Assembly: GCA_964430945.1 (NCBI GenBank)
Contig: CAYSHH010000001.1
Coordinates: forward strand, 82,678-146,677
Direction: 5' to 3'
DNA length: 64,000 nt
Origin: an uncultured Candidatus Saccharibacteria bacterium
GTDB lineage: Bacteria > Patescibacteriota > UBA1384 > JAMDBS01 > CAYSHH01
This document shows positions 31,424 through 51,661 of this stretch, in pieces. The position numbers and the translations under genes were made by a program. The notes under the pieces are model-generated. The model saw only the letters and a list, made by a program, of their open reading frames with translations. It searched no databases and was not told where the DNA came from. The first letter of the stretch is position 1, and each line of letters starts with the position of its first letter.

Positions 31424-31438
31424 CATGAAGGATTATAT

Positions 31439-34400: not shown

Positions 34401-34564
34401 TAGCTCTAAATCTTGGCGAGGGATCAGAAATGATGAAACCTGTAGCTATTGTAGTAATCGGTGGAATGATTACCTCAACTTTGCTTACATTAATAGTTAT
34501 TCCTGTAGTATACTCTTTGCTTGATAGAAAAAAGACTGTAAAAGCTGATTCAATTCAAAATTAA
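31439..34564 (+). CDS. RND superfamily efflux transporter permease (AcrB/HAE-like, 12 TM, two large periplasmic loops)
   Basis: 1041 aa. N-terminus FVKRPVTTIMIMLIVILLGVVSLSGISWDLLPEIELP. Duplicated 6-TM bundles. No adjacent MFP or OMP gene. Confidence 0.85.
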   Translation: MKFTEIFVKRPVTTIMIMLIVILLGVVSLSGISWDLLPEIELPMAGVITVYPGSSPTEVEELVTKPLETELSTVNNLDSVNSISQENMSIVMFKFNWGVNVDEAAIELRDKLELVKANLPSGIQTPTVIKFDPTLMPTMELAVSDGKSIEDLTKIINDTIKPDLEKVPGVASVELIGGLDSEIKIQVDQEKMSQAGLSYDQLLQVLKSQNLSIPAGEIEKDNKKMDVRATASIDNIDQIKDIIVGYKTANLSSSANQVSTVSASYLSYQAIPQPVYLKDIAEVDCDVEETTSINKLNDQKAVGLSIRKEGSANTVKVSNEVKEKIDRIQEENNVDIAIIMNQAEIVENSINNVAITGIIGAIIAIIILFFFLKDIGSALIVGISIPFSVIATFALMYASGISMNLMSLGGLVLGIGMLVDNSIVVLENIYRHFKEKGKTAFQAAIEGTKEVAGAITASTLTTLAVFLPVVFLGGLAGQLFKDFSLTIVFSLSASLLVALTILPMLASKFMKKNNARQAVKENKLLKIYEPIIKWSLKNRFAVIVIAIGLLAGSIALIPAVGTELIPDIDQGYVAISAKLPNGTKLEKSEELAEEIEVMLLDYEEISNISANIGSDSQNMASIMGDSGNNIVKINAKLKAKNERDISTDEFVKEVKSKLEVITGGRAESSIAKTNAMMDIGTTIEYKISGNDDQDIKKISDNLVDKIKNINGLINVSSDISEQKPEIEILVDNNKAMSQGLVPAQVINAVYTTTGTTKVMEIEKDDDIMDVNIELRKEDKASIDDLKQLELTTTQGKKIKLEEVAEIKDSLGPVKITRENQSRTATISASLNDTSLSKADSQIQEIIDSLEIPSGLEITQSGIHEMQDESFDNIYIALIFAAILVYMIMAAQFERLLHPFIIMFCIPLALIGAILGLLMTNIPLGITAMIGFVVLVGIVINNGIVLVTYVEQLQEKGMSKEEALIEGGKTRLRPILMTAITTIVGLIPLALNLGEGSEMMKPVAIVVIGGMITSTLLTLIVIPVVYSLLDRKKTVKADSIQN

Positions 34565-34620
34565 TATTGAGAATATTACAAATAGTAAATAAATATTAAC
34601 CAGTTCAAAAGTGATATTAG

Positions 34621-35100
34621 ATGAAAAAATATCCTGATAAAAATTTTATTTCAGAGGGTATATACGGAATGGTCACATGTTTGGCAGTTATTTTGATTAT
34701 GGAAAGCCATTTATCAAATTATTGGGATGCATCTTTAACCTTATTTGGTTCTGTATTGGTAGTTACACTCGCAAAAGCATATAGTGATACTATTGCTGAA
34801 GTGATTACTCAAAAAAGAAAATTAGAGTTGTCAGAATTAAGAATAGTCTGGTATCATGCAGCCCCCATACTTATATCTGCAAATATCCCCACATTAATTA
34901 TTTTACTGTCTGGCTTGGGATTATATTCTGTGTCCACAGCTTTATATGTATCTAAAATATTCATTTATATTTTATTGTTTTTATATGGAATTAAGATGGG
35001 TCAGCTTATGCATGAATCCAGGATAAGGATAATATTCAGTGGGCTTATGACATGTGGTATAGGATTGTTAATTAGTTTTATTAAAATGTTTTTTCACTAA
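34621..35100 (+). CDS. Hypothetical polytopic membrane protein
   Basis: 159 aa, 4-5 TM helices, no recognisable motif. Confidence 0.4.
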   Translation: MKKYPDKNFISEGIYGMVTCLAVILIMESHLSNYWDASLTLFGSVLVVTLAKAYSDTIAEVITQKRKLELSELRIVWYHAAPILISANIPTLIILLSGLGLYSVSTALYVSKIFIYILLFLYGIKMGQLMHESRIRIIFSGLMTCGIGLLISFIKMFFH

Positions 35101-35129
35101 ATGTATAAATATTAAATAATTAATAGATA

Positions 35130-36083
35130 ATGGCTATCATTGAAGTTCAAAATCTAACCAAAAAGTTTGGCGAAAAAGCTGCGGTAAACGGCTTAAGTTT
35201 TGATGTGGAAAAAAATCAAATTTTTGGTCTTCTTGGAACAAATGGGGCTGGCAAATCAACAACTATTAATATTCTAAATGGTCTTTTAGTTCCAGATAAA
35301 GGAAAAGTTAAAATTCTTGGATATGATATTAAAAATATTGAAAAGGTAAGGAATAAGATTGCTTTAGTTCCTCAATCAACTTCTTTATATGAAGATTTAA
35401 CAGCACTCGAAAATATTGAATTTTTTGCAGGAATGTATATTAGTGATGAAAGAAAACTGCAGAGCTCCATCAAGTGTACTGTTAATAAACTCAATATTAA
35501 AAATATTTTAACAAAACAAGTTTCCCAACTTTCCGGAGGATATAAAAGAATTGTTTCTATTGCATGTGCATTAGCTACAAACCCAAAAATTGTATTTTTT
35601 GATGAGCCACTTACAGGAATAGATATTCATACAAATCAAATAATATTAAACATTTTAGAAGATCTTAAAAAGGATATGACAATAATCTTTACCACTCATT
35701 CAATAAAAGAAGCAGAAAAACTATGCGATTATGTTTTTTTTATTGATAAGGGTCAATGTTTTCTTCAAGGAAAAGTATCAGATATTATAGATAGATATAT
35801 CAAAAAAAATGGTCAGAATATAATTATAAAATTTAATACCTTGCGTGAAACTAGGAAATTTGCAAAATTTTTGCAATCAAATAAAACTAGCATCCTCAAT
35901 CAAAAAAATGAAGGTAAGTCGATAGTATTAGATGTTTCTAATCCAAATTTTGGAATTAAAGAAATATTTTTACTATCTCAAAAAGCTTCTACTACAATTA
36001 AAGATATCAAAATAAATAAACCTAATTTAGAAATAGTTTTTAATAAAATATATAACGATGAAATTATTAAGAATAATTATTAA
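35130..36083 (+). CDS. ABC transporter ATP-binding protein
   Basis: Walker A GTNGAGKST, ABC signature LSGGYKR, Walker B IVFFDEP, H-loop. Confidence 0.9.
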   Translation: MAIIEVQNLTKKFGEKAAVNGLSFDVEKNQIFGLLGTNGAGKSTTINILNGLLVPDKGKVKILGYDIKNIEKVRNKIALVPQSTSLYEDLTALENIEFFAGMYISDERKLQSSIKCTVNKLNIKNILTKQVSQLSGGYKRIVSIACALATNPKIVFFDEPLTGIDIHTNQIILNILEDLKKDMTIIFTTHSIKEAEKLCDYVFFIDKGQCFLQGKVSDIIDRYIKKNGQNIIIKFNTLRETRKFAKFLQSNKTSILNQKNEGKSIVLDVSNPNFGIKEIFLLSQKASTTIKDIKINKPNLEIVFNKIYNDEIIKNNY

Positions 36084-37551
36084 AGAATTCAAGCAGATCA
36101 CTCATGACAGAGGATTTATATTAACTCTTATATTTATCCCTCTTGTTTTGATGATAATTTTCAATGCCACTTTTAAGTCAGATGTAAAAAATCTAGACAC
36201 AATAATTATTGATAATGATAATTCAGTTTATTCAGAAAGCATTAAAAATGCCGCTCGTGATTCAGAATATTTTAATGTTATTGAGGACGATATTTCCTTT
36301 GATCAAGCCAAAGAAAAATTAAAAACAAGTGAGGTCAGATCAATTATTGTTGTGCCGGAAGGATTTTCTCAAAAATTAGATAATGCTGAAAAAACTGATA
36401 TGAAAATTTATATCGATTCTTCTGATTATACAGTTTATAATGTTATTAAATCTGCCTCGGGTCAACTTTTGAAAGATTCTCTAAAAGATATAATTAATCT
36501 TATTGTAGCAGGTCTTGAAACTGAAAAGGATGTAAATCAAAATAAAATTAATGAGATAAATGAGCTGACCGATAATTTAAAAGTCAAAGCGGATCGAACA
36601 AAAGCAAATTTAGACAATCTATCGTATGATTTTGATGATTTTAGAACACAGATTAATGATATGGAAAGCTCTATTACTGATCTTGATAAGTCGTTAAATG
36701 CACTTCCCAAGGATTCGGACGTTGTAAAACAATTTAGTGAAATCAAAAATGAATTCGATAGTTTAAAAGATAAGGTTAATAATCATCAGAAATCGGTTGA
36801 TAGCATTGAATATGATATAGATGGAATCAAGGTAGATTATGACTCTATTAAAGAAAAGGTGCAAAATATTGATGTTAAACTTGAGAATCTGAAAAAAGAT
36901 TTTCTTTCTCAGCCGATAGAATTTGAAAAGCAATTTGAATATGGAGAAATATCTTACTTTCAATATTTGACCCCCGGAATTATATCACTCATCTTATTTT
37001 TTATAGGTATATCATTAACACTTCTTAATCTAATTGAAGAAAAACAATCTAAAACGCTGTATCGCATGATGACTACTCCAGTAAATAAATGGGAGATATT
37101 TTTTGGAAAATTTTTTCTTTTTTTTGTGATAGGTATTTTTGAAGCAGGATATATACTCTTAATTTCTATACTTTTCTTTAATGTAAATATTGCTGGAAGC
37201 ATCTTGTATGTTTTTTATATTTTAGTAGTCCTTATGTCTGCATCAATTGGTCTAGGTCTTATGCTTTCAGAATTTGTAAAAACTACAAAACAAGCATTTA
37301 TGCTCGGACCACTTATAATTATTCCTTCAATTTTAATTTCCCAGACCTTTTCACCAGTAGAAGTAATGCCTCAATATATGCGATATGTCGCATATCTAAT
37401 ACCGATGTATTATTCTAATAATGCACTTCGTGATGTAATGATAAAGGGTGCATCTTTTTCAACTATTGCCCCAGAAATTATTCTTCTTACGCTTTATGCT
37501 TTTATCACGGTTTCACTTGGAGCATTAATCTTTAGAAAAAAAATCCAATAA
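36058..37551 (+). CDS. ABC-2 family permease with a large extracytoplasmic coiled-coil domain (YhgE/Pip-like)
   Basis: 497 aa. N-terminal TM helix, then a 250-aa coiled-coil-rich loop and a C-terminal 5-TM ABC-2 domain. Overlaps the ATPase gene by 26 nt. Confidence 0.75.
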   Translation: MKLLRIIIKEFKQITHDRGFILTLIFIPLVLMIIFNATFKSDVKNLDTIIIDNDNSVYSESIKNAARDSEYFNVIEDDISFDQAKEKLKTSEVRSIIVVPEGFSQKLDNAEKTDMKIYIDSSDYTVYNVIKSASGQLLKDSLKDIINLIVAGLETEKDVNQNKINEINELTDNLKVKADRTKANLDNLSYDFDDFRTQINDMESSITDLDKSLNALPKDSDVVKQFSEIKNEFDSLKDKVNNHQKSVDSIEYDIDGIKVDYDSIKEKVQNIDVKLENLKKDFLSQPIEFEKQFEYGEISYFQYLTPGIISLILFFIGISLTLLNLIEEKQSKTLYRMMTTPVNKWEIFFGKFFLFFVIGIFEAGYILLISILFFNVNIAGSILYVFYILVVLMSASIGLGLMLSEFVKTTKQAFMLGPLIIIPSILISQTFSPVEVMPQYMRYVAYLIPMYYSNNALRDVMIKGASFSTIAPEIILLTLYAFITVSLGALIFRKKIQ

Positions 37552-37600
37552 AAAGTCGTTTATTGTGAAATAAATAAAAATATTATCAAACATTATCGTT

Positions 37601-38446
37601 ATGAAAAATTATAAAGAAGCACCAGGTATTCTGGATTCAATTAAGAAAATATTCCGTACTAAACCTCCTAAAATATGCTTAGTTCTTGGTAGTGGGGGTA
37701 CTTGGGGTCTAGCACATATTGGGGTTTTAAAAGTCCTAGAAAAGAATGGTATCGTACCAAATTATATAGTCGGTTGTAGTATGGGGTCTGTAATTGGTGC
37801 TATATATGCACTAAATAAGGACTTAAATAAAATTGAAAAGATATCATCGGAGCTTGGTAAGTGGAATCTAATTAAACTTGCTGATGTAAATATACCCAAA
37901 AAATCATTAATAACTGGCAAGAAAATCAGAAATTTTCTAGAAAATATTATTGCCGATAAAACATTTTCCGATACTATAATTCCTATTAAAATCATTGCTA
38001 CTGACTTAGAAAAAGGAGAACAAATGGTTTTAAGTCGAGGAAGTTTACTAGATGCGGTTATGGCAAGTTCAAGCATTCCTGGGATATTCCCACCAGTTAA
38101 ATTAGATGAAAAACTATTAGTTGACGGAGGTGTAATTAACGCCACTCCAATTAATGTAGCTAGAAGTTTTAAGCCAGATATTATTATTGGAGTAGATTTG
38201 ACTATAAAACATAAAGCTGTTTTTAAAAACCCAAATATCTATCAAGTACTTATGCGATCATTTGATATATTAAGGAACCAATCTACTAAATTTTTTATTG
38301 AAGAAGACAAAAATACTATTATTATAAGACCAAATGTTGCTAAGATGGAATCATATAAACTATATGATTTGAATATGTTTATTAAAGAAGGAGAAAAAGC
38401 AACAAAAAAATGTTTACCGCAAATAAATGCATTATTAAATGATTAA
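37601..38446 (+). CDS. Patatin-like phospholipase
   Basis: Oxyanion hole GSGGTWG, nucleophile elbow GCSMGS, catalytic DGG in VDGGVINATP. Confidence 0.85.
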   Translation: MKNYKEAPGILDSIKKIFRTKPPKICLVLGSGGTWGLAHIGVLKVLEKNGIVPNYIVGCSMGSVIGAIYALNKDLNKIEKISSELGKWNLIKLADVNIPKKSLITGKKIRNFLENIIADKTFSDTIIPIKIIATDLEKGEQMVLSRGSLLDAVMASSSIPGIFPPVKLDEKLLVDGGVINATPINVARSFKPDIIIGVDLTIKHKAVFKNPNIYQVLMRSFDILRNQSTKFFIEEDKNTIIIRPNVAKMESYKLYDLNMFIKEGEKATKKCLPQINALLND

Positions 38447-38671: not shown

Positions 38672-39586
38672 ATGAAGAAAAAAATATTTCAACTAATAAT
38701 TGGCGGTGAATTTACTGCTCAACCAAAACATAAATCCAAGATCATTCCTATAAACCTTCTAGACCATTTTTATAACACCAACCCAAACGATTTAGGAAGT
38801 ATTATAGATTTTGCCAATAAATATAGTTTTGGTGGATATATTGTACCTAATAGAAATTGTTCAATAAAAGATAGATTCTTAAATCTTCAAGATAAATATA
38901 ATCCGATTATCAGACATCTTGTTGACACTAAAACGATTAATTATCATGATCTTACAATTATTAACAAAGATTTAAAATCATCTTTCCCCTATATTCGTTT
39001 AAGAAATACTGTTAATAATCTTGAAAAAATTAAAAGAGGTTTTGCTTTTTATGATTTAAAAAATGTTCATGGCGAAAAACCAGAATACAAAATCACAAAC
39101 ATTGGTGCATTTGAAGTTGATAAAGATAAAAGCGCTCATATTGAAATAACTATAAAGGTTCCTGCTGAGTCTAAGACAAAATGGTATGTTGAGCAAATAG
39201 ATGACGGCGCATCAATGCTTGAAAAAATATTTCCCGATCAAGACTGGGGAGCAAACAAAGAATATCTCAAAAATATTATTTTAAAAAACGGAAATATCAA
39301 ATTTGATTCCAATAAACAGGTAAAATCAATTGAAATGAATTTCTACCTTGGTAAGACAAATTTTTTTAAAGAAGAACTAGTAGCAGTCTGGACATCACAA
39401 AATGCAGAATCTTTTCTAGCTAAAAGAATCTGGGATTATGTAAACAGTGAGTTTATAAATAAAGGAGAACGTAAGTTATGTAAAATTTGCGCGAAAATAC
39501 ACACTGGACGCTCTAAAGATTATTGTTCAAGAGAAGCTTGTCGCAAAGAATGGGATAGTAGACGAAAAAAACGTAAAAAGAAGTAA
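38672..39586 (+). CDS. Hypothetical protein with C-terminal zinc-ribbon and basic tail
   Basis: 304 aa. No recognisable catalytic motif. C-terminus CKICAKIH...CSREAC, then RKEWDSRRKKRKKK. Confidence 0.4.
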   Translation: MKKKIFQLIIGGEFTAQPKHKSKIIPINLLDHFYNTNPNDLGSIIDFANKYSFGGYIVPNRNCSIKDRFLNLQDKYNPIIRHLVDTKTINYHDLTIINKDLKSSFPYIRLRNTVNNLEKIKRGFAFYDLKNVHGEKPEYKITNIGAFEVDKDKSAHIEITIKVPAESKTKWYVEQIDDGASMLEKIFPDQDWGANKEYLKNIILKNGNIKFDSNKQVKSIEMNFYLGKTNFFKEELVAVWTSQNAESFLAKRIWDYVNSEFINKGERKLCKICAKIHTGRSKDYCSREACRKEWDSRRKKRKKK

Positions 39587-39660: not shown

Positions 39661-39683
39661 CGCACCCGAAAGGTGCTTTTTTA
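39661..39683 (+). terminator. Rho-independent terminator
   Basis: GCACCCGAAAGGTGCTTTTTT. Confidence 0.8.
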
Positions 39684-39701: not shown

Positions 39702-39896
39702 ATGCCACAAGACAAAGAGAAACAAGCGCTAGAGCTTGTAAATTCAATTCGAGGGCAAGTCCTTATTGGATACGCCTTAGAAACAGCTATTAATAAGTTT
39801 TCAATATTTAAAGGAAGATACAAACAAGTATCAGTGATTGCTGACATGCAATTGATGCTTGATAATATTTTCTTCATCGGAAAGGCACAAAAATGA
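39702..39896 (+). CDS. Small hypothetical protein (64 aa)
   Basis: SD GAAAGGAAT upstream. The stop overlaps the start of the ParB-MTase gene (ATGA). Confidence 0.4.
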   Translation: MPQDKEKQALELVNSIRGQVLIGYALETAINKFSIFKGRYKQVSVIADMQLMLDNIFFIGKAQK

Positions 39897-41188
39897 AAAA
39901 ATTAAACTTAAAAACTGTCTATGTAGACACAAAATCACTAAAATTCTGTGAATATAACCCAAGGATTTTTAGTGATAAAGCGATTAGTGATCTTAAAAAG
40001 TCGATCAAAAAAAGCGGATTTGTTTCTCCAATTTTGGCTAACTCAAATTCCAAAAGATACATGATTGTAATTGGAGGGAACCTTCGGTTATATGTTGCTC
40101 GCAAGCTTGGCATTAAAAAGGTGCCGGTCAACTACATCAATGTGGAAAATATTGAAGATGAAAAAAGATTAAATCTGGCTTTAAATCGTGTGAGCGGTGA
40201 ATGGAATTATGAAGCACTTAAAAACTTTAAAATTAAAACGCTTCTAGACATAGGTTTTGATGAAAAGGATTTAAGTTTAATTTGGAACGATGTTTTGTCC
40301 ATAGAAAATGATGATTTTGATGAAGCCAAAGAGGTTGAAGCAATTAAGATTCCAAAAACCAAACTTGGAGATTTATACGAACTCGGGATACATCGCTTGA
40401 TTTGCGGAAATTCCGAGAACCCGGAAGTTATAAAACGATTAGTTGGTAAAGAAAAAGTAAGTATGATAAATTGCGATCCAATCTATAACATCACCTACGA
40501 TTACTCCAAAGGACTAGGCAAAAAAGACAAGTATCATGCAGAAGTAAAAGACACCAGAAGTATTGAGGAATACAAGAAGCTATTGAAGACAACTATTGAA
40601 AATGGATTGGCAGTTTCCAAAGATGATGTCCACTGCTTTTACTTCTGTGATCAAAGGTATATAGGTTTACTTCAAAGTATTTATTCAGAACTAGGATTAG
40701 ATAATAAACGAGTATGTTTATGGATTAAAAATAATATGAATCCGACACCTCAGGTCGCATTTTCAAAGTGTTATGAAGCTGTCGTATATAGTACCCGAGG
40801 AAATCCATACTTGGCGTCAATTAATAATCTTAATGAAATCTTAAACAAAGAAATTGGCACCGGCAATAGAACAATTGATGACATTTTAGATTTATTGGAT
40901 ATATGGCTTGTTAAAAGATTGCCAACATCTCAATATGAGCATCCTACCAGCAAGCCGCCTTCACTTTACGAAAAAGCTCTCAGAAGATGCACCAGGCTCA
41001 ATGATATTGTACTTGACATGTTTGCCGGCGGTGGCAGTCAAATGTCAGCCTGCGAGCAGTTAAAGCGCAAATGCTATATGGTCGAGCTTGAGCCGAGGTT
41101 CTGTGATGTGATCATCAAACGTTATGAAACACTAACAGGGAATAAAGCAAAATTAATTAGAAAAGGAGATTCAAATGAAAATAAATAA
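39893..41188 (+). CDS. ParB-like nuclease domain fused to a DNA methyltransferase (N6-adenine/N4-cytosine, beta class)
   Basis: 431 aa. N-terminal ParB/Srx-like region (VSPILANSNSKRYMIVIGGNLRLYVARKLG), catalytic motif IV DPIYNI, C-terminal AdoMet motif I DMFAGGGS. Confidence 0.8.
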   Translation: MKKLNLKTVYVDTKSLKFCEYNPRIFSDKAISDLKKSIKKSGFVSPILANSNSKRYMIVIGGNLRLYVARKLGIKKVPVNYINVENIEDEKRLNLALNRVSGEWNYEALKNFKIKTLLDIGFDEKDLSLIWNDVLSIENDDFDEAKEVEAIKIPKTKLGDLYELGIHRLICGNSENPEVIKRLVGKEKVSMINCDPIYNITYDYSKGLGKKDKYHAEVKDTRSIEEYKKLLKTTIENGLAVSKDDVHCFYFCDQRYIGLLQSIYSELGLDNKRVCLWIKNNMNPTPQVAFSKCYEAVVYSTRGNPYLASINNLNEILNKEIGTGNRTIDDILDLLDIWLVKRLPTSQYEHPTSKPPSLYEKALRRCTRLNDIVLDMFAGGGSQMSACEQLKRKCYMVELEPRFCDVIIKRYETLTGNKAKLIRKGDSNENK

Positions 41189-41921
41189 AAACGATTTAAT
41201 TATTTTGGGCAATCACAGACTTTTTGCAGGTGATTGCACCAAACCAGAAAACATCAAAAGACTTATTGGTGACGAAAAAGTAACTTCCATAATCGTAGAT
41301 GTACCTTACGGAATTCAAGCCACCCAATCTAAAGAATATCTGCAAACCAAAACTAAACATAAAAACATTATTAATGATCAATATCAATCCAATACAGATT
41401 ATACCAAATTCATGAGAGATTGGCTTTCTGTCATAAAACCTTATCTTACAATTACCAACTCATATTATATCTTCAATTCCGACAAGATGATCTTTGCTCT
41501 TAAGGATGCCCTGGACAAAGAAAACTTTTATTTTTCCCAGCTTCTTATTTGGATTAAAAACCATCCAGTAATTGGACGGCTGGATTATCTTCCCCAGCAC
41601 GAGCTTGTAGCTTATGGATGGTATAAAAAACACAAATTCAGAAAATCCAAAGATAAAAGTGTCCAGTACTTTCCAAAACCCAACAAAAGTGAACTGCACG
41701 CCACTATGAAACCAGTAGGATTAATCAGAAATCTTATCTTAAACAGCACTGAAATTGGTGACATTGTCTATGATGGGTTTTTGGGTTCAGGAACCGCTAT
41801 TATTGCAGCAGAGCATACCAGAAGACGTTGTTTTGGAGCTGAAATTGATTTGGATCATTGCCGAACAATTATTAAACGTTTTAGTAAATTAACCGGCTTA
41901 AAAGCCAGAAAGGAGAATTAA
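41175..41921 (+). CDS. DNA methyltransferase (amino-MTase, motif IV before motif I)
   Basis: 248 aa. Motif IV DVPYG, motif I VYDGFLGSGTAIIAAE. Overlaps the upstream gene by 14 nt. Confidence 0.8.
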   Translation: MKINKNDLIILGNHRLFAGDCTKPENIKRLIGDEKVTSIIVDVPYGIQATQSKEYLQTKTKHKNIINDQYQSNTDYTKFMRDWLSVIKPYLTITNSYYIFNSDKMIFALKDALDKENFYFSQLLIWIKNHPVIGRLDYLPQHELVAYGWYKKHKFRKSKDKSVQYFPKPNKSELHATMKPVGLIRNLILNSTEIGDIVYDGFLGSGTAIIAAEHTRRRCFGAEIDLDHCRTIIKRFSKLTGLKARKEN

Positions 41922-41923
41922 AA

Positions 41924-42331
41924 ATGATTAAAAACAAAACTAAAATTAAACAATTGTTTGTCGAGCAATTGAGTAAAACGCCGATCATCCAAGTTTGTTG
42001 CGACAAGTTAAATGTCAGTAGGGCGACATTTTATAGGATGAAAGCCAGTGACAAGAAGTTTAGCCAGGAAGTAGACAAGGCTTTAGATGAAGGACGAGAA
42101 CTAGTTAATGATATTGCAGAATCAAGATTATTAACTGCTATTCAAAATGGTAATCTTTCCAGTATTATGTACTGGCTCAAGTTCAATAACTCCCGTTATG
42201 GCAATAAAATTGAGATTTCCGGCTCAATTAATACTACTAACGAGCTGACACCCCAGCAGCTAAAAAATATTAAAAAAGCGTTGGCTCTTGCCAACATTAA
42301 GGAGAATAATTATGAAAGAACAAATAAATAA
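41924..42331 (+). CDS. Phage terminase small subunit-like HTH protein
   Basis: 135 aa. HTH CDKLNVSRATFYRMKASD. Sits immediately upstream of, and overlapping, the terminase large subunit. Confidence 0.6.
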   Translation: MIKNKTKIKQLFVEQLSKTPIIQVCCDKLNVSRATFYRMKASDKKFSQEVDKALDEGRELVNDIAESRLLTAIQNGNLSSIMYWLKFNNSRYGNKIEISGSINTTNELTPQQLKNIKKALALANIKENNYERTNK

Positions 42332-43889
42332 TAAAAATTATCAGGAAATTAAGAAATTTGTTGAAAGCATTATCAGTGATCCAGCAAGTCGCAGAGAAAT
42401 AGTTAAGCGAAGTCATCTATATTTCTTCTGCACTTACTTTAGTAAATACCTAACTTACCAGATGGCGCCACTTCATCACGAGCTATTTCGTATCAGTGAA
42501 GATGATAATATTAATCTGGCAATAATTTCTGCCTTCAGAAATTGTGGAAAAAGCGTAATTATGAATCTATCATATATACTCTGGGCGGTATTGGGAAAAC
42601 CACAAAAAAAATTCATACTCATTATTTCTCAAACCAGTGATCAAGCCAGACAGCATTTTGCCAATTTAAGACGAGAGTTGGAGACAAATGAGCTTTTGAA
42701 AAAAGATCTTGGTCCATTTAAGCAGGATTTCACCTGGAATAATGGTGCTTTAGTTATTCCCAAATACAATGCCAAGATTATGGCTTGTTCAACTGAGCAG
42801 TCAATTCGAGGATTAAGATATGGCGAGCATCGTCCTGACCTATTGATTCTTGATGATATTGAAGACATAAACAGCGTAAAAACTAGAGAATCCCGTGATA
42901 AAACATACACTTGGTTTGATTCAGAAATAACTCCAATTGGTGACAGAAAAACAAAGACAATAATCTTGGGAAATATTTTGCATCAGGATTCAATGATTAA
43001 AAGATTAGAATCAGAAATTGACGCAAAAACTAGAGACGGTATTTATCGAGAGTATCCTATTATGGATGATAATGATAATATTCTCTGGTCTGGCAAATAT
43101 CCAACCATAAAAGAAATTGATGAAGAAAAAAGGAAACGCAACAGATTCACTTGGCTTAGAGAATTTATGCTTAGAATTATTGATGATAAAGAACCAGTAA
43201 TTGACCCTGATTGGATACATTATTATCAAGAGCTTCCAAAACCATTAAGGAATCAAGGATATGCTTATGCCGTAGGTATAGATCTGGCGGTATCAGAGAA
43301 AGAGCATGCAGACTATACTGCAATTGTAACAGCAAAAGTTATGAACGAAAAAAATGGAAAAAGGATATATATTCTCCCTAATCCAATCAACACCAAAGTG
43401 CGTATGCCCGATACAATCAATAATATTATAAACATAGATAATACATTGGATGATGGAAGATGCAAATTCTATATCGAAGACGTAGGTACTCAAAGAGGAT
43501 TAGCTCAGTTATTGGAGGAAAAAAAGATTGAAACATACAATGTGAAAATTGGTCAGAATGATAAAAGAACCAGACTCTCTATGACATCTAACAGCATCAA
43601 AGAAGGAAAAATATTATTTCCCGAAAAAGGATGCGAAGAACTCATCAGACAGATTCTTGAATTTAACATCTTAAAGCACGATGATTTAATGGATGCATTC
43701 TCTACATTGTTTCAAGGTATTCAGGAAGAACCACCATCAACTTCCTGTGGTATTACAATCATTGATTTAGGACCTGAATTTAAACCAAGAGATCCATTGG
43801 AATACGAAAAATATGCAAAAGAAAAAAGGATTAAGCTTGGACCAGATGGTCTTCCAGTAAGAAAAAATGGAAGAATTGTTAGACTTTAA
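42312..43889 (+). CDS. Phage terminase large subunit
   Basis: Start set at MKEQINN (SD AAGGAG 8 nt upstream). ATPase Walker A-like FRNCGKS, Walker B LLILDDIED, RNase H-like nuclease domain AVGIDLAVSEKEHADYTAIV...DDLMDAF. Confidence 0.85.
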   Translation: MKEQINNKNYQEIKKFVESIISDPASRREIVKRSHLYFFCTYFSKYLTYQMAPLHHELFRISEDDNINLAIISAFRNCGKSVIMNLSYILWAVLGKPQKKFILIISQTSDQARQHFANLRRELETNELLKKDLGPFKQDFTWNNGALVIPKYNAKIMACSTEQSIRGLRYGEHRPDLLILDDIEDINSVKTRESRDKTYTWFDSEITPIGDRKTKTIILGNILHQDSMIKRLESEIDAKTRDGIYREYPIMDDNDNILWSGKYPTIKEIDEEKRKRNRFTWLREFMLRIIDDKEPVIDPDWIHYYQELPKPLRNQGYAYAVGIDLAVSEKEHADYTAIVTAKVMNEKNGKRIYILPNPINTKVRMPDTINNIINIDNTLDDGRCKFYIEDVGTQRGLAQLLEEKKIETYNVKIGQNDKRTRLSMTSNSIKEGKILFPEKGCEELIRQILEFNILKHDDLMDAFSTLFQGIQEEPPSTSCGITIIDLGPEFKPRDPLEYEKYAKEKRIKLGPDGLPVRKNGRIVRL

Positions 43890-43930
43890 GTCAGTTATCT
43901 GTCATTACTGTATGTCAGAAAGGAATATAT

Positions 43931-44185
43931 ATGAAAACAAGATACATTGTTAAAGATAATAAACTAATCTTATATTCTCAAAATAAAACCACTATTCCCA
44001 TATCTCAAATTCTTTGGATAAAATTCTCTGATAATCAGAAAAACTCTAAAGTAATACTTGAGACAATATCAGGTATTATAGCTGAATTTAAGATTAATCC
44101 CGAAAATAGAACAAAATTCAAAAACTTAATGGATCTGCATAGAAAGAATGTAATCTTAAAAGAGTTAGAAATAAAGAAGAAATAA
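43931..44185 (+). CDS. Small hypothetical protein
   Basis: 84 aa. SD GAAAGGAAT. Confidence 0.4.
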   Translation: MKTRYIVKDNKLILYSQNKTTIPISQILWIKFSDNQKNSKVILETISGIIAEFKINPENRTKFKNLMDLHRKNVILKELEIKKK

Positions 44186-44198
44186 TAAAGTGAAAATA

Positions 44199-44232
44199 AG
44201 CTAGGGATTAATTATCCTTAGCTTATTTTATT
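44199..44232. terminator. Bidirectional terminator at the convergence of the phage-like module and the minus-strand operon
   Basis: ATAAGCTAGGGA-ttaatta-TCCTTAGCTTATTTT: 12-bp stem with one mismatch. Confidence 0.7.
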
Positions 44233-44237: not shown

Positions 44238-44465
44238 TTAATTATTATCTACATCAAGCATAGATAGCTTTTTATAATATTTAACAGCACTTTCTTGATT
44301 AGGGAATTCTTTTTTACCACAAAACCCACGAAAGCGGGTGCCTTCCGGATAGTTTTCTGTTATCAGATACTCTGCAAACCATTTTTTAGTTTTGGGATTA
44401 ATTTTAGGTTTAACTTCAATTTTGCAGGTTTTGTATGTAAAGTTTAAGATACTATTTTTTAGCAT
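44238..44465 (-). CDS. Small hypothetical protein, last gene of the minus-strand operon
   Basis: Likely start MLKNSIL. Overlaps the 3' end of the DUF2130 gene. Confidence 0.35.
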   Translation of the reverse strand: MLKNSILNFTYKTCKIEVKPKINPKTKKWFAEYLITENYPEGTRFRGFCGKKEFPNQESAVKYYKKLSMLDVDNN

Positions 44466-45609
44466 TTTTATTCTCTTCAGGCTCTTCAAGGTATTTAATT
44501 TGCCCCAATGCACGACCAGTTACCGCTTGAAAATCTCCATACATTCCATGAGTATTATCAATGATCTTTCTGATTTCTTTCTCTTGTCTTGCCCATTTTG
44601 TTTGAAACCATCTTTTTTCTCTTTCAGTTTCTTGTTGTAAATTTGTAAATGCTTCAACTATAGCTTCAATGCGGTGTTGAAATTCTGTTCCAGTAAGATA
44701 TTGAAATAGTATTTCCATTTTTTCATTTTTACCTACATTCAATAATTTTTCGTTATGGAGATGAATCAAATCGAATCTAAGCGCGGTTGATAAAGCGATA
44801 ATCATCTTGGGATTAGCTATCCAAACTCCTTCACGATAAACATAAGTTTCAATATCATCTGGCAAATCAGTTCCAACCAAAACTCCCAACTGAGCTTTTG
44901 CCGTTCTTTGATCTTCTCTTAATTTTTTAATCCAGCTTGAGCTCCATTTAGCATTTTTAGACTCCCATAATATTGTTCCACATTCTCTTCCTTTTTTATC
45001 GATGACTACCTGTTTCGTATCGGCTCCTCTTTGTCCCTTTTTGATTTCTTCAATTTTATCTTCAGAGAAATAACGTTTCAGCATTTCTTCAAGTTTTAAC
45101 TCGAGAACCTCACCTTGTAATTGTTGTGAGCTTCGTTGAGCTTTCTTCTGTGCTTCAATTAAAGATTTTTTTAAGTCATCAATTATTTTATCTTTTTCCC
45201 TATCTTTTAATTCATGTTCTTCAGTAAAACTTTTTCTCGTTTCAATTTTAATTTTTTCTTCTTCATCTAATAATTTCTTTTTCATCTCCAAATCTCGTTC
45301 TTCATCCTTTCTTCTGAGTTTGCGTAATTCATCATTCAAATCTTCCAATTGTTTTAGAAGTTTAGAATTTCTGTCTTTTTCTTCTTGTTTTTCTTTTTGT
45401 AGATTTTTAATTTGAGAATCAAAACTATCTTGAAGTTTTGACATAATTTCTTTTTCTGTTCTTTCCTTAACTTCAGCAATTTCCTTTTGATGTTTTGTTT
45501 TTTCTGCAAGTAATGCTTCTTCTTTGATTTTATGTTGCAAAGCTTCAGTTATTTCAATTTCTTTACCACAATACTTACATTTAATTGTATTTGTCATACT
45601 TGACTCCAC
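44452..45609 (-). CDS. DUF2130 family protein with N-terminal zinc-ribbon and long coiled coil
   Basis: 385 aa. CKYCGKEI zinc ribbon, 200 aa of K/E-rich coiled coil, and a C-terminal DUF2130-like core (KKGQRGADTKQVVIDKKGRECGTILWESKNAKWSSSWIKKLREDQRTAKAQLGVLVG). Confidence 0.6.
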   Translation of the reverse strand: MESSMTNTIKCKYCGKEIEITEALQHKIKEEALLAEKTKHQKEIAEVKERTEKEIMSKLQDSFDSQIKNLQKEKQEEKDRNSKLLKQLEDLNDELRKLRRKDEERDLEMKKKLLDEEEKIKIETRKSFTEEHELKDREKDKIIDDLKKSLIEAQKKAQRSSQQLQGEVLELKLEEMLKRYFSEDKIEEIKKGQRGADTKQVVIDKKGRECGTILWESKNAKWSSSWIKKLREDQRTAKAQLGVLVGTDLPDDIETYVYREGVWIANPKMIIALSTALRFDLIHLHNEKLLNVGKNEKMEILFQYLTGTEFQHRIEAIVEAFTNLQQETEREKRWFQTKWARQEKEIRKIIDNTHGMYGDFQAVTGRALGQIKYLEEPEENKNAKK

Positions 45610-45627
45610 AAATCATTATTTATGAAT

Positions 45628-48600
45628 TTAATTTAATTCTTTTTTTATTTCTTCAATTATTTGATCTCTATTATAATTGTTATTTATCCAATTTGAATAT
45701 TTAATTCGTAAAAACTTCCAACCTGCTGATTCAAGAACCATTTGTCTTTTTATATCGGAATCAATATATTCCATATTTTCTTCATCAGAAAAATGACAAG
45801 GTCCATCACATTCAATTGCAAGCTTTGTATTATTCTCTTTATTTTGAATTACAAAATCAATATAATAACCACAAGTTGGTACCTGATTATAAATTAAATA
45901 TTTCTTACTTTGTAGTTTATTATTAGCTAAATCATAAAATTCTTTTTCGAAGTTTGAATCAAAACTACGAAGTTCCTTTTTTGTGCTTTCAACTACTCCG
46001 TTTGTTTCAATATAGCATAAGAATTTATCAAGCCATATTTTTTCTGGCCATTCCCTATAATCTAAGCTAGTAAAACAATGTACTTGTAGTCTAGCTCGAG
46101 AAAAAGCAACATTTATTCTACCCCTGACTATTTCTGGACGTATGTCTCCACCTTCACCAGTTAAAGCTACATATTGCATTTTTTGAGATGGATCATGTAT
46201 AACTAACGAAAAAATTACTATATCTCTTTCTTCTCCTTGTATACCATCAATAATACCAATTTTAATATTATGGTCTATTCCAAATGTGTTCTCAATTTTT
46301 TTTCTTATTAAATCTGCTTGATCATTAAAAAAAGATAGTATTGCTATCGATTTATCTTTGTATATAGGATCTTTTTTAATATCTTTAATAAACTTAATAA
46401 TTTCATTAGCCTCATTTGAATTCACACTTGGTGAAATATTTTCCTTATCTTCTGTATCATATTTAACTAAATGATTTACTAATACACGATTAGTATCCTT
46501 GTATGTTAGATATGAATTATTAACAACTTTCAGACTATTATCATAAAAATTTTCATTACAAAAACCTATAATTTCAACAGGTGATCGATAATGTTCTTCT
46601 AAAAATTTTGATTTAATACCTCTGAGTATGCCAATATCTAGTATCGATTTAATATTTTCATATCTTCCCATTATTCTGTAATCTTCATCGATATCAAATC
46701 TTAATGCCAAATCTTCTAAAATAGATTTCTTTTTAAACAGTACTGTATCATCCCTCATTTGTTTAGGATCGCCAACGATTATTGCTTTTTCTGCCCGATA
46801 CATTGTTGGAAGTGCATATGCAATATTACATTGTGATGACTCGTCTAATATTACATAATCAAATAAGTTTTGTTCTAAGGGTAGAACTCTGCTTGCATCC
46901 TCTAAATTCATTATCCATATAGGAACAATATTTGATACTGCACTAAAAATAGATAAATCATTTCTTAATCTTTCGAAGGTCTTAAAAGCTTTTTTAGATT
47001 TCTTTAAACCTTTTGCAAAACTAATTATTTTTCCTCGAATAGTGGCTTTCAAATCTTTATAAAGAGAGACTTTGTATTTTATCTGATTACGGAGATATTG
47101 TCCTACGATTTTTTGTCTATTCTTTTCAAAATCATTTATTTCATTTGATATATTTGAATAATCAATAAAATCAATCTCGATTATTTGTTCTGTGATTTTA
47201 TTAAATTCAAAAAAATCCGATAATTCTTTTTTTTGATTTTGTGAAGATAAAATTATTTTAATTATTCTTTTTAACTCATCTAGGGTAGTATTAATAGATT
47301 CTAAAAACTCATTTATTTGTTCCCGAGTATTTTCTATTTGCAATCTTTGTTCCTGAAATACACAATATCTTTGTACTGATTCAAAAAATTTTACTTTTGT
47401 TCCGAGTGACTTAGTTTTATCAGCAAGACATTTTTTCAAAATGCTCGTCATTTCTTTAGGCATCTTTTCTATGTTGTTCCGGTGAGCTTTTTGAAGTTGT
47501 ATTTTTTTAATTATTGATTTAATCAAATTTTGATTATCGTAATCAAACTGAATCATCTCATCAATCATTTCTTCCACATCTGCTGATAAATTTTTCTCCC
47601 AATACATTGCCAAAACTGTTGAGAAGAATTCTGAGAATTTATCAAATTCCTTTTTGTAAGTATTCTCGTAATCCTTCCTTCTTTTTTCTAAGTATGAGAT
47701 TTTGTTTATTTTTTCCTGAAGATTTTTAACAGTTTCCAAATTAAGCTTTTCTTCTAATTTTCTATAGTTTTCTAAATAAAAATATTCTTCCGGATATTTT
47801 TTAATTTTTTCTTTTAAATGAAAAATGGTTTCTTGTTGTTTAATACCTTTGTTAAAAAGTAATGACTTTTCTACAATTTCTTTAATTTGTTTTTGTATAT
47901 CTTGTTCATCAATATTGTGTCGGGATAAGAAACTATCTAATTTTAATCGTTCTAAAGAATTAGAAAAACTATCATAAATTTGTTTTTCTGTTATGTCGCT
48001 AGTCATATAACCAAATAAATGATCAATTCCCAAATCATTCATTTTGTCTTTTACCACTCTCAACGCTTGCTGTTTTTGACTAACAAATAATATTCTTTTT
48101 CCTTTTGCAACTAAGTGGCAAAGTAAATTTGATATTGTCTGGCTTTTGCCAGTTCCTGGAGGACCTTCAATAATAAATGCTTTGTTTTGCAAAAATTGTA
48201 TTACTTTTAGTTGACTACGATTATATTTAAAAGGATAAAATATATTTCCTTGTTTAATAGATTCGTTATCGACTAGATTGAGTTCATTATCGCTTTCCTG
48301 GGACCATACTCCAATACTAGATTTAGCAAGTTCTTCATTTTTCTTTTCAGATAATATTTCTAGATCTTTAGTAAGAAAATAATTACTTTTAGGCGCTAAA
48401 CTTAATGATATTATTGAAAAATCGCAATTGTTCTGAGCAAAATTTATCTTAGTTAATCTTAATTTATTTACTAAAATTTCACCTAGTTCTTTTAGAATTT
48501 TAATATTTCCCGGTAGATTTAACTTGGTATCTTGGTCAAATTTACCAAAATCTTTTAACAAGTCATAATAAAAATCTTCATTTTCTAGAATATTCTCAAA

Positions 48601-49155
48601 CATGCTTAAATCATAATATATCTTATCGTCTGTGATTTTTAGAGAATATCCTCCTCTGATTTTTTTTATTGAAACCTTAATATAAAAAAGAAAACTCGAA
48701 TGTGCTTCTTGGTTCAAAAACGTACCGTCTTTTTCTATTCTTTTTCCACCTCTTAATTTAGCTTTCTGAGATAATTGGTGATCAATATTAAAACTAAATT
48801 CACCGAATCTTACTATAATATCTTTAGTAAATTCCTGGTTTTTTTGTGCAGATATTAAATTCTCGATGTTTAAAGCAATATCCTTTTCAAATTCATAGTC
48901 TTTCTGGTTTTCTTCGGTTACTGTTTTAGGGGTATACTTGTTTAAAACTTCAAGTTTGATATTTACTTTATTATTGTCTGCATTAAAAGCTAAAACATCA
49001 TCAATTTTAAGATATTTTTCATTTAATGAAATATATTCTTTTGGCCTGAGAGATGCATTGCATATCCTAAGATATCCCAAACAATATTTAATATAATTTG
49101 ATAGAAATTTTTTTTGTTCATTGTCGGAAGATTCTGATTGATTATTATTTATCAT
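45628..49155 (-). CDS. Large SF1 (Upf1/DNA2-like) helicase with N-terminal DUF4011-like region and C-terminal Vsr/DUF559-like endonuclease domain
   Basis: 1175 aa. Walker A IIEGPPGTGKSQTI, motif II YVILDESSQ, GDPKQM, motif VI VAFSRAR. C-terminal DUF559-like LAIECDGPCHF...WKFLRI. Confidence 0.8.
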   Translation of the reverse strand: MINNNQSESSDNEQKKFLSNYIKYCLGYLRICNASLRPKEYISLNEKYLKIDDVLAFNADNNKVNIKLEVLNKYTPKTVTEENQKDYEFEKDIALNIENLISAQKNQEFTKDIIVRFGEFSFNIDHQLSQKAKLRGGKRIEKDGTFLNQEAHSSFLFYIKVSIKKIRGGYSLKITDDKIYYDLSMFENILENEDFYYDLLKDFGKFDQDTKLNLPGNIKILKELGEILVNKLRLTKINFAQNNCDFSIISLSLAPKSNYFLTKDLEILSEKKNEELAKSSIGVWSQESDNELNLVDNESIKQGNIFYPFKYNRSQLKVIQFLQNKAFIIEGPPGTGKSQTISNLLCHLVAKGKRILFVSQKQQALRVVKDKMNDLGIDHLFGYMTSDITEKQIYDSFSNSLERLKLDSFLSRHNIDEQDIQKQIKEIVEKSLLFNKGIKQQETIFHLKEKIKKYPEEYFYLENYRKLEEKLNLETVKNLQEKINKISYLEKRRKDYENTYKKEFDKFSEFFSTVLAMYWEKNLSADVEEMIDEMIQFDYDNQNLIKSIIKKIQLQKAHRNNIEKMPKEMTSILKKCLADKTKSLGTKVKFFESVQRYCVFQEQRLQIENTREQINEFLESINTTLDELKRIIKIILSSQNQKKELSDFFEFNKITEQIIEIDFIDYSNISNEINDFEKNRQKIVGQYLRNQIKYKVSLYKDLKATIRGKIISFAKGLKKSKKAFKTFERLRNDLSIFSAVSNIVPIWIMNLEDASRVLPLEQNLFDYVILDESSQCNIAYALPTMYRAEKAIIVGDPKQMRDDTVLFKKKSILEDLALRFDIDEDYRIMGRYENIKSILDIGILRGIKSKFLEEHYRSPVEIIGFCNENFYDNSLKVVNNSYLTYKDTNRVLVNHLVKYDTEDKENISPSVNSNEANEIIKFIKDIKKDPIYKDKSIAILSFFNDQADLIRKKIENTFGIDHNIKIGIIDGIQGEERDIVIFSLVIHDPSQKMQYVALTGEGGDIRPEIVRGRINVAFSRARLQVHCFTSLDYREWPEKIWLDKFLCYIETNGVVESTKKELRSFDSNFEKEFYDLANNKLQSKKYLIYNQVPTCGYYIDFVIQNKENNTKLAIECDGPCHFSDEENMEYIDSDIKRQMVLESAGWKFLRIKYSNWINNNYNRDQIIEEIKKELN

Positions 49156-49165
49156 TTAAAATCCC

Positions 49166-50086
49166 TTATTTAAATTTATTATAAATCTGTTTTATTAAAA
49201 ATAAAGCATATTCCAGGTCATCTTCATTTTTAATCGAAAATTCTGTCTGGTGTTTATGATAATATTTGTAACTATTTTTTATATATAGAAGAGTTTTCTT
49301 TGGATCTTTAAAATCTTTGGGTTGCACCCTATTTAATATTAAATTTAATTTATTTCTTTGAGATTTAAACTCAAATAAAACTCTAGAATCCATCTTGTAA
49401 CCAATGTAATATTTTTGTGGACTTTCTTCTAAATTTGGGTAAACTTCTAAAATGTTTTCTCTAATCTTATCAAAAAGTTCTTTTGATTTTTCCCAGCCTT
49501 TTTTAAAATGATCATCTATTGTATACTTTTTAACTTCTTTAGATACTTTTTGAACTATACCACTTGTCTTAGAAAGAGTTTTTATTGATTCTGAGGTTTC
49601 AGGAGATACAAGCTGATCAAATTCAATAATATTGCCAGAGTATTTGGCAACCTTCCAAAGTTCAATTGGTAAATCATTAAAATTAATAGCTTGCTTTTGA
49701 TGTTTTGTATAACTTCTTGCAACAAAAATTACTCGTGTTTGTGACCAGTCAACTTGATCTTTTTTAAGACTATCTTTCTGAGTTTCATTGTAATGTAAGA
49801 TAAAGTCAGCTTTATTATTAAGAGCCAAGCTTAAATACGCATATCCTTGATCAATAACAGATATATTTCTGTCTTTTTTGTATTCAATAATCACAAAGGA
49901 TTTTGATTCATCATCAAAAGCAAGAGTATCAATACGTAAGTTGTTGAGTGCAAATTCTGTAGCAATAAATTTGAGTCCAAAAATCTCTGAAAGATTTTTT
50001 TCAGCAAGAGTTTGAATATCTTTTTCCAAATCAAAAGAAAATTCTTTTACTAGCTCTAATTTGTTATTGACTTTCTTAAAAAGCAT
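49166..50086 (-). CDS. PD-(D/E)xK nuclease-like protein (RecB/Cas4-like core with QxxxY)
   Basis: 306 aa. D in RIDTLAFDDE, E-x-K in VIIEYKK, then IDQGYAY (QxxxY). Confidence 0.6.
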   Translation of the reverse strand: MLFKKVNNKLELVKEFSFDLEKDIQTLAEKNLSEIFGLKFIATEFALNNLRIDTLAFDDESKSFVIIEYKKDRNISVIDQGYAYLSLALNNKADFILHYNETQKDSLKKDQVDWSQTRVIFVARSYTKHQKQAINFNDLPIELWKVAKYSGNIIEFDQLVSPETSESIKTLSKTSGIVQKVSKEVKKYTIDDHFKKGWEKSKELFDKIRENILEVYPNLEESPQKYYIGYKMDSRVLFEFKSQRNKLNLILNRVQPKDFKDPKKTLLYIKNSYKYYHKHQTEFSIKNEDDLEYALFLIKQIYNKFK

Positions 50087-50145
50087 ACTTAAATTATACT
50101 TCCAAACAGGTTAGAACACAACCTTTTAATAAAAAGTAAACGTAT

Positions 50146-51487: not shown

Positions 51488-51661
51488 AATATTTATTAAA
51501 ACCATATCTTACATATAAATATATAAGGGTTAGGTTTGTTTCTAACTAATTGTTACTAACAGGTATATAATAGCATAAATAAACATTAAATAAAAGTATT
51601 TCTACCTGTTAGTTATCTACATCTAGACATATATCACATTATCCGGCATCCTTACCTTGCT

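Follow-up and report, generated by a model that had tools for sequence, protein, structure and literature searches.

Satellites of the Staphylococcus aureus pathogenicity island (SaPI) type, the phage-inducible chromosomal islands (PICIs), and the 'minimalist' Vibrio islands (PICMIs), which have int and terS, are small integrated islands with an integrase at one end, their own small terminase subunit (TerS), accessory or defense cargo and no virion structural genes. Whether satellites are present in episymbiotic hosts of the Candidate Phyla Radiation (CPR) or DPANN was posed as an open question in a 2025 preprint (10.1101/2025.02.15.638363). Here, we describe a cassette that lies in a 64-kb stretch of contig CAYSHH010000001.1 (hereafter the window) and recurs across the CPR. 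It comprises genes for a ParB-methyltransferase fusion (ParB-MTase), a second methyltransferase (MTase), TerS and the large terminase subunit (TerL), and is often followed by a gene for a large serine recombinase (LSR). The RpoD and DnaG proteins encoded in the window are closest to homologs from metagenome-assembled genomes (MAGs) of Patescibacteria. In our estimate the chances are evenly balanced that the region is the core of an integrating genomic island with defense cargo in a CPR bacterium, probably of a Berkelbacteria-like kind, the island probably spreading as a phage satellite in the capsids of a helper. We favor the satellite model because an integrase, TerS, an optional TerL, phage-type MTases and defense cargo occur together, without virion or replication genes.

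The cassette islands differ from SaPI-type PICIs and PICMIs in several respects. They use an LSR, whereas the known islands use a tyrosine integrase, and they have neither a conserved Stl-like repressor nor a conserved pri-rep/ori module. In turn, they possess an obligatory ParB-MTase, often their own TerL, an associated structured RNA (LOOT) and a CPR host, a group from which satellites are not known to have been reported. A form without TerL (ParB-MTase-TerS-LSR, with a core of about 4 kb) is as minimal as the PICMIs. The PICI-type replication module is neither conserved among the neighbors of the cassette nor present in the delimited island of locus L045 (L-numbers denote the related loci compared). 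Capsid-forming PICIs (cf-PICIs) also encode both TerS and TerL. Their capsid, portal, protease and head-tail connector proteins, however, have no present or conserved counterpart in cassette islands.

In the window, positions 39702-44185 form one operon of six genes, bracketed by terminator-like hairpins, both of which were located by a consensus scan only. The features are, in order:

39662-39676, plus strand: terminator-like hairpin with a T-run, between an upstream 304-aa gene and the operon (consensus scan)
39702-39896, plus strand: 64-aa open reading frame (ORF), first gene of the operon (ORF list; kept in L001)
39893-41188, plus strand: ParB/Srx-like N-terminal domain joined to a beta-class N6/N4 amino-methyltransferase (Pfam PF02195, PF01555)
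41175-41921, plus strand: second N6/N4 amino-methyltransferase, without a ParB domain (Pfam PF01555, E 3.3e-25)
41924-42331, plus strand: TerS, with an N-terminal helix-turn-helix (HTH) and a helical region (PHROG matches of the family; alignment)
42312-43889, plus strand: TerL, with ATPase and RNase H-like nuclease intact (phrog_38, E 7e-78)
43931-44185, plus strand: 84-aa ORF, final gene of the operon (kept after TerL in L001, L009 and L026)
44193-44229, plus strand: terminator-like hairpin with a 16-bp stem, at the end of the operon (consensus scan)

A first-pass annotation, made from the letters and an ORF list alone, had called the four central genes, and matches in Pfam, PHROG and Foldseek bear out all of them. 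It had also reported overlaps of 4, 14 and 20 nt between them. Two of these are found as described, 14 nt between the ParB-MTase and the second MTase and 20 nt between TerS and TerL (from ATG 42312). The 4-nt overlap, however, belongs to the 64-aa ORF and the ParB-MTase, and a gap of 2 nt separates the second MTase from TerS. The ParB-MTase matched ParB_N (E 5.6e-9) and N6_N4_Mtase (E 1.1e-24) in Pfam as well as phrog_498 (E 1.9e-89), and its translation carries DPIY ... FAGGGS motifs. The second MTase is found in about half of the cassette family. For the 64-aa ORF there was no family match in Pfam, PHROG or PADLOC, and the 84-aa ORF likewise gave no family match.

Assignment of TerS relies on the family. 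By itself, the window protein gave weak matches to TerS PHROGs (2e-6). Of 31 family members, 30 matched phrog_4044, annotated 'terminase small subunit' (best E 3e-13), and further TerS families were matched by many of them (phrog_309, 26/31; phrog_4102, 24/31; phrog_24579, 20/31). The protein is small, combines an HTH with a helical region, and is encoded directly upstream of terL. TerL was first delimited as a mechanical ORF from TTG 42288, to which the residue numbering used here refers; the recorded product has 525 aa and starts at ATG 42312. An AlphaFold2 model of TerL (pLDDT 79) was compared with the PDB by Foldseek, and the top 19 matches were full-length large terminases (E 1e-16 to 1e-10, probability 1.0), the nuclease domain reaching a TM-score of 0.6 against the G20c nuclease. 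The TerL profile matches the ATPase domains of T7 and PhiV-1 TerL, and Pfam Terminase_6C stayed below its cut-off for the window protein (19.9 vs 22.6 bits). In 97 sequences, the ATPase residues K88, D189, D190 and E192 and the nuclease residues D332, D465, D466 and D469 are conserved at 97% or more. Thus, by its ATPase and nuclease residues, whole-protein homology and modeled fold, the protein is predicted to be a true large terminase. Some TerL homologs (P0133, P0135, P0136, P0150, P0167, P0173, P0254 and P0269) are 680-830 aa long, with an extra N- or C-terminal part of about 200-300 aa.

TerL relatives are numerous and confined, as far as they are named, to Patescibacteria, Berkelbacteria or Kuenenbacteria. 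A large protein collection held more than 2500 at E<=1e-10, on contigs of up to 867 kb, and at E<=1e-30 they fall into 397 clusters at 50% identity. The cassette family occupies at least 538 places in GTDB species representatives, a count that is a lower bound, and several MAGs carry two copies. The window TerL is at most 28% identical over its full length to any GenBank phage TerL, the nearest being of Mu type, and there was no nucleotide similarity between the window and GenBank phages. When loci were seeded with TerL proteins at least 36% identical to that of the window, the order ParB-MTase, optional second MTase, TerS, TerL was observed in 80/80 GTDB loci and 16/16 IMG/VR loci. The same order recurs in all 100 non-redundant TerL-seeded loci from Patescibacteria. 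IMG/VR loci in which TerL is at most 30% identical to the window protein were devoid of both the ParB-MTase and the LSR (64/64).

Clustering of the 1800 genes found in 104 loci revealed how sharply the conserved set is bounded. TerL was present in 104 of 104 loci, MTases in 100, TerS in 97 and the LSR in 76, and the fifth most frequent neighbor family reached 15 loci at most. No portal, capsid, tail or replication gene was conserved among the neighbors. Hence the family retains, in 97 of 104 loci, its own gene for packaging specificity, TerS, together with no conserved virion gene, as is typical of a satellite. A fifth conserved protein was sought upstream of the ParB-MTase, where 55 of 77 loci have a same-strand ORF, mostly of about 130-300 aa. 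These ORFs had no Pfam matches and fell into many small groups with patchy profile-profile links, and the candidate was discarded. Pairwise identities of TerL, LSR and ParB-MTase correlated weakly (rho 0.13-0.21); this test of co-evolution is uninformative because the divergence is star-like.

The ParB-MTase points to the ancestry of the cassette. In temperate siphophages (Streptococcus Javan, Wolbachia phage WO, Gordonia, Clostridium) a ParB_N and N6_N4_Mtase fusion about 31% identical over its full length is encoded upstream of the terminase. That true temperate phages have these homologs immediately before their terminase and portal genes shows the phage origin of the cassette, which is thus the head of a phage late operon of which everything downstream has been lost. 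Portal, capsid, tail and lysis genes come after the terminase in the phages, whereas a recombinase or cargo does so in the cassette. Phage WO also uses a large serine recombinase.

With phage-derived genes and no structural genes, the cassette could be taken for a decaying prophage remnant that has no function of its own; a degraded prophage was one of the readings that the first-pass annotation had proposed. However, the same four genes are kept in the same order in about 100 loci from many CPR classes, the catalytic residues are invariant although the mean pairwise identity in the family is 48%, and the 1800 neighboring genes contain no conserved structural family; no locus retains a trace of structural genes. 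The conserved order, the intact TerL residues and the TerS matches therefore rule out this reading, to which we assign only a very slight chance. An intact prophage was rejected as well. The absence of portal, capsid, tail and lysis genes after the cassette, noted in the first-pass annotation, extends to the whole 64-kb window; structural genes just outside the region, which had been named as the sign of an ordinary prophage, are absent from the sequence that the window covers on either side (39 kb upstream, 20 kb downstream), nor are any conserved in the 104 loci.

The recombinase gives the cassette the character of an integrating element. TerL is followed by an LSR gene in 70 of the 100 non-redundant loci, and in 69 of them the two share a strand. 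The LSR abuts TerL in 33 loci and in 37 is found behind 0.3-9.8 kb of variable cargo, often a type I restriction-modification (RM) system. Among the 30 loci without an LSR, 16 have less than 5 kb of sequence downstream of TerL. Where contexts were annotated with Pfam, the cassette is preceded by RM or defense genes, and housekeeping genes follow the LSR. The cargo of related loci includes type I RM, AlwI RM and a combination of Dcm, AIPR and Z1. In this respect the islands resemble SCCmec (ccrAB), which also integrates by serine recombinases near a conserved housekeeping locus, carries modular cargo that varies between strains, and forms tandem or composite elements with two recombinase genes. 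The SCC elements, in contrast, are without terminase genes and do not themselves encode the route by which they are transferred.

Regulators typical of inducible mobile elements were observed in single loci. L172 encodes a LexA-like repressor (LexA_DNA_bind and Peptidase_S24; 7425-8057, minus strand) divergent from the cassette, L001 a pair of M78 peptidase and HTH_3 protein, and L045 a MerR/HTH_17 ORF. None of the three types is conserved throughout the family.

The second partner of the cassette is an RNA. LOOT (Rfam RF03000) is not known to have an assigned organism or function; Rfam enters it as an sRNA, whereas here it is placed at the head of leftward cargo operons of the islands. A covariance model was built and run on the cassette loci and on 66 control loci totaling 0.8 Mb. 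Of the roughly 100 non-redundant cassette loci, 37 contained LOOT; the controls contained none. The 39 matches in cassette loci, which include one duplicate locus and two weak matches, lie in 34 cases on the strand opposite to the cassette. Compensatory changes support 28 of 31 predicted pairs in 37 island copies, and the window copy and 36 others match the model from end to end. In most loci a same-strand ORF begins 46-85 bp downstream of LOOT; it often heads a leftward RM or defense operon, and these ORFs belong to several unrelated families. Its positions vary, lying 100-200 bp upstream of the LSR, 250-450 bp upstream of the ParB-MTase, or within cargo. L065 and L073, whose cassettes are 92% identical, differ by a 1.2-kb unit consisting of a 297-aa gene and LOOT, inserted in a TerL-LSR spacer of about 90 bp.

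Metagenomic loci were then collected by means of LOOT itself, using a DNA pattern specific to one LOOT subfamily and keeping loci of at least 6 kb (n = 63). Core proteins were encoded in 54 of them (86%), LSR in 35 and TerL in 12. In the loci with TerS, TerS was followed by TerL in 13, directly by the LSR in 6 and by other genes without TerL in 20; 6 were not classifiable. TerL is thus missing from 26 of the 39 classifiable loci. Examples are L219, L230, L240, L247 and L265, in which the ParB-MTase is followed by a longer TerS homolog of about 200 aa and then by the LSR directly or by cargo. The order in L247 is LOOT, ParB-MTase, a 201-aa TerS homolog and LSR, and this homolog shares 33% identity with the window TerS over the full length of the latter. 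In predicted viral contigs seeded with TerS, TerL follows TerS in 52 of 56, a sample in which both the collection and the profile favor the TerL-bearing form. Since LOOT-seeded loci are often without TerL, the constant part of the family is ParB-MTase, TerS and LSR, with TerL facultative. At the other extreme, seven loci (L027, L039, L051, L067, L077, L091 and L100) contain tandem TerL paralogs that are 52-59% identical, with all ATPase and nuclease residues intact.

The facultative TerL bears on what the cassette does. It could be an RM-like defense or addiction module, in which TerS would provide recognition, TerL would be a translocase-nuclease, the ParB-MTase or both MTases would protect and the LSR would merely mobilize the unit. 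The strict linkage of MTases to TerS and TerL in about 100 loci fits such a module, as does the constant presence of the cassette among defense genes, and tandem active TerLs would be easier to accommodate in an enzyme complex than in a motor that has to fit a portal. The MTases, moreover, have no classical restriction endonuclease beside them: across loci no restriction endonuclease family accompanies them, and they match the MTase_II models of PADLOC. As far as sequence allows, they would not count as a type II RM system, that is, an MTase with its cognate endonuclease, and the first-pass description of both as orphans agrees with the family, whose MTases travel with TerS and TerL. Against an RM-like module stand the 26 of 39 LOOT-seeded loci that lack TerL and keep ParB-MTase, TerS and LSR, in which the supposed nuclease is dispensable; these TerL-less islands therefore argue against TerL as the nuclease of such a module. 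Furthermore, TerS and TerL match no PADLOC model, and the order of ParB-MTase and terminase is inherited from ordinary temperate phages. Hence we regard the RM-like module as unlikely.

TerL-less islands can also be read in another manner. The cassette might act without capsids, with TerL processing DNA for a different route of transfer (CPR bacteria depend on competence and type IV pili), or the 'TerS' might assist the LSR as a factor for directionality or regulation. The direct adjacency of TerS and LSR in the absence of TerL (L219, L230, L240, L247, L265) is in favor of this explanation, and so are the lack of a known helper phage, the lack of a visible size constraint and the weak TerS score of the window protein alone. 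The TerS family, on the other hand, aligns for the greater part of its length with several independent TerS PHROGs (best E 3e-13, 30/31 members), TerL, where present, begins before the TerS gene ends, an overlap also seen in phage terminase operons, and we know of no recombination directionality factor that resembles TerS. Overall, capsid-free action or an accessory role for the LSR seems to us not very probable.

The boundaries of an island could be seen in L045 (Woesebacteria). Here a 34-bp direct repeat with one mismatch (3944-3977 and 13509-13542) bounds an island of 9.57 kb. The right copy overlaps the 3' end of a tRNA-Ser gene, the left copy adjoins a tRNA-like 3' fragment, 1.2 kb further out from the right copy there is a tmRNA gene, and both outer flanks are housekeeping genes. 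Between the repeats are found, in order, genes for a SAM-MTase, a histidine phosphatase, DUF4352, an unknown ORF and the MerR/HTH_17 (excisionase-like) ORF, then the cassette, the LSR and a 105-aa ORF. No structural or replication gene is present in these 9.57 kb. Flanking direct repeats were sought in all loci, and only L045, together with a terminal overlap in L061, displayed them. This scarcity is expected because serine recombinases need very little identity between their sites.

A relation to tRNA genes is also suggested by orientation. The first downstream tRNA is convergent with the LSR in 28 of 28 cases, seven of them within 600 bp, and a convergent tRNA beyond the LSR is also found in the window, L172, L219, L240, L247 and L273. 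Because 10 of 12 upstream tRNAs are on the minus strand as well, this rule was downgraded and is only suggestive.

Further observations concern the ends of single loci. L061, a 17.3-kb contig, has an exact terminal overlap of 44 bp (1-44 and 17291-17334) inside an ORF with an Ntox44 toxin domain and may be circular; it carries the cassette, LOOT and two tandem LSRs of about 580 aa. Among all loci it is the sole candidate for a circular contig, and its remaining genes give no further clue. In L064 (20195-20235) and L098 (7169-7208), near-perfect palindromes of 40-41 bp separate the LSR, whose stop codon precedes them by 8-14 nt, from the convergent tRNA close behind; they could be a terminator or an att-like site. 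In L015 (16871-17065), parts of tRNA-Gly are duplicated in tandem, with exact repeats of 32 and 28 bp, between the LSR and the intact tRNA.

These ties to an integrase, to tRNA genes and to cargo that varies between strains are the behavior of a mobile element, and they speak against the cassette as a domesticated engine of gene transfer or lateral transduction. Such an engine would package in situ, into the capsids of a cluster resembling gene transfer agents or of a resident prophage elsewhere, and would mobilize defense genes. The nearest phage TerLs are of Mu type, which package from the integrated state, and defense cargo directly adjoins the cassette, two features that such an engine would explain. 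One report (PMC12829572) describes the mobilization of defense genes by lateral transduction, which we count in its favor. Yet the cassette is patchy, sometimes multi-copy and not universal in the CPR, and the 64-kb window holds no structural genes. We hold a domesticated engine to be quite improbable.

In the window, the cassette is embedded in the following features:

29249-30604, minus strand: large serine recombinase LSR_L, outward-reading, putative left edge (Pfam Resolvase, Recombinase and Zn_ribbon_recom)
30803-38446, plus strand: left cargo, consisting of a TetR regulator, an RND (AcrB-type) pump, a 159-aa ORF, an ABC ATPase, an ABC-2 permease and a patatin-like phospholipase (Pfam)
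38672-39586, plus strand: 304-aa protein, C-terminal motif CxxC...C...C, found before the cassette only in close relatives
44238-51255, minus strand: leftward variable cargo, consisting of a 91-aa ORF, DUF2130, a fusion of superfamily 1 (SF1) helicase and REase_MTES_1575/DUF559, PDC-S18 and a PDC-S11-like gene (Pfam, PADLOC)
51399-51536, minus strand: LOOT RNA (Rfam RF03000; 59.4 bits against a gathering score of 46.4)
51662-52954, plus strand: large serine recombinase LSR_R, on the cassette strand, right end (Pfam Resolvase, Recombinase and Zn_ribbon_recom)
53081-53155, minus strand: tRNA-Asn, convergent with LSR_R at a distance of 127 bp (ARAGORN, Rfam)

The two recombinases, the tRNA-Asn, the defense cargo and LOOT, like the CPR-wide family and its facultative TerL, go beyond the first-pass annotation. 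Both recombinases score above the cut-off for all three Pfam domains; they are paralogs (52% identity, BLASTP) and both point outward. LSR_L adjoins the efflux and patatin cargo and is without a cassette of its own, an arrangement that could represent a composite island or two islands back to back. Three defense candidates lie between TerL and LSR_R, namely PDC-S37, PDC-S18 and PDC-S11, the SF1 helicase-nuclease fusion being PDC-S37/Hhe-like. The leftward cargo has a GC content of 26-29%, as against 33-36% in the backbone. The strain variant L001, with 93% nucleotide identity, is collinear with the window from 33915, where the L001 contig begins, to 44445, and continues with other cargo (DUF3368, M78 peptidase and an HTH protein). 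Since homology to this close relative stops at 44445, the stretch after TerL is a cargo hotspot. The window LOOT precedes the leftward cargo operon by 144 bp; LSR_R, from which it diverges, is at a distance of 126 bp.

The tRNA-Asn is the probable integration target and chromosomal flank of the window island. To its right lie rpoD and dnaG, and the same tRNA-Asn-rpoD-dnaG flank is present in L004. A search of the window island for a copy of the tRNA-Asn end found none. A 13-nt sequence resembling a tRNA T-arm, GGTTCGAGTCCGA (52958-52970), which follows the LSR_R stop codon immediately, is the exact reverse complement of the tRNA-Asn T-arm (53093-53105) and may be what remains of an attachment site. 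A 42-nt repeat (28574-28615 and 28809-28850), which matches the 5' end of the DUF308 gene and has 71% identity, lies in the non-coding gap of 600 bp that precedes LSR_L and may be a scar of the left junction. Exact-protein look-ups for an empty integration site found none: RpoD and the 304-aa protein had no entry, and the DUF308 protein led only to a 2.5-kb contig with the same arrangement. Elsewhere in the window there are housekeeping genes (DnaB, DnaX, a histidine kinase, FtsH, RpoD, DnaG, PpdK and RecA), transport genes and defense cargo. Seven tRNA genes are scattered over the window, among them tRNA-Ile(TAT), tRNA-Glu(CTC) and tRNA-Gln(CTG), one of the seven at 11574-11649 on the plus strand; two tRNA-Met genes, 168 bp apart, adjoin FtsH.

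The 304-aa protein encoded upstream of the operon gave no Pfam or PHROG match. Its family comprises only 12 clusters in 5.8e9 proteins, with invariant C-terminal cysteines, and homologs are situated upstream of the cassette in L001 and L009. The best Foldseek matches of its AlphaFold2 model (pLDDT 73) were Cas12f chains; at a TM-score of 0.12, the assignment as a Cas12f-like protein was discarded.

Taken together, we propose the following course of events for a satellite island. The island would integrate by its serine recombinase, at least sometimes at the 3' ends of tRNA genes. Upon induction or infection by a helper phage, the operon would be expressed, and TerS would recognize a pac site on the island. 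The island DNA would then be threaded into helper procapsids, the motor being the island's own TerL or, in TerL-less forms, presumably that of the helper. The ParB-tethered MTase, alone or with the second MTase, may pre-methylate the DNA, which would thereby survive the RM systems that dominate CPR defense. Excision, dependence on a helper and encapsidation are steps that we infer. The suggestion of a satellite-like island that keeps its own terminase and MTases, also made in the first-pass annotation, is the best-supported account of the locus and is as yet unproven.

Several points weigh against a satellite. No helper phage was identified, and every TerL at least 36% identical to the window TerL sits in a cassette and not in a phage, so that compatibility with any portal is conjectural. 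Neither a replication module nor a recombination directionality factor was recognized. Island sizes vary from 9.6 kb to more than 20 kb without sign of a headful constraint, flanking repeats were found in one locus only (L045), and the tRNA orientation rule is weakened by the general strand bias (10/12 upstream tRNAs on the minus strand). We know of no satellite or phage with two intact tandem TerLs as they occur in the seven loci. The very tight linkage of MTases and TerS could mean that they serve some purpose besides anti-restriction, or instead of it. Membership in IMG/VR may simply reflect the terminase gene.

The full-text literature searched, with incomplete coverage that leaves room for an earlier description, held no description of the cassette or of LOOT in such islands. 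The cassette island family is apparently undescribed, and its core gene set, host range and RNA partner are unusual. More tentatively, at somewhat less than even chances, we propose that it is the first phage-satellite family of CPR/Patescibacteria, a phylum-wide class of serine-recombinase islands in which only ParB-MTase and TerS are constant and TerL is facultative and sometimes duplicated, which serves as the main vehicle of defense genes and in which LOOT is a regulatory or immunity RNA.

The ultra-small CPR bacteria represent a large share of bacterial diversity; their genomes measure about 1 Mb, and next to nothing is known of their mobile elements or their interactions with phages. In these organisms, an island family conserved at 538 or more places would be a major route of gene flow and of defense-gene turnover. 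The orphan LOOT RNA gains a genomic context and partners that can be tested, and the linked serine recombinases with their tRNA-adjacent targets may serve as integration tools. Finally, islands with TerS only, with TerS and TerL, and with TerS and two TerLs form a natural series for the study of redirected packaging enzymes.

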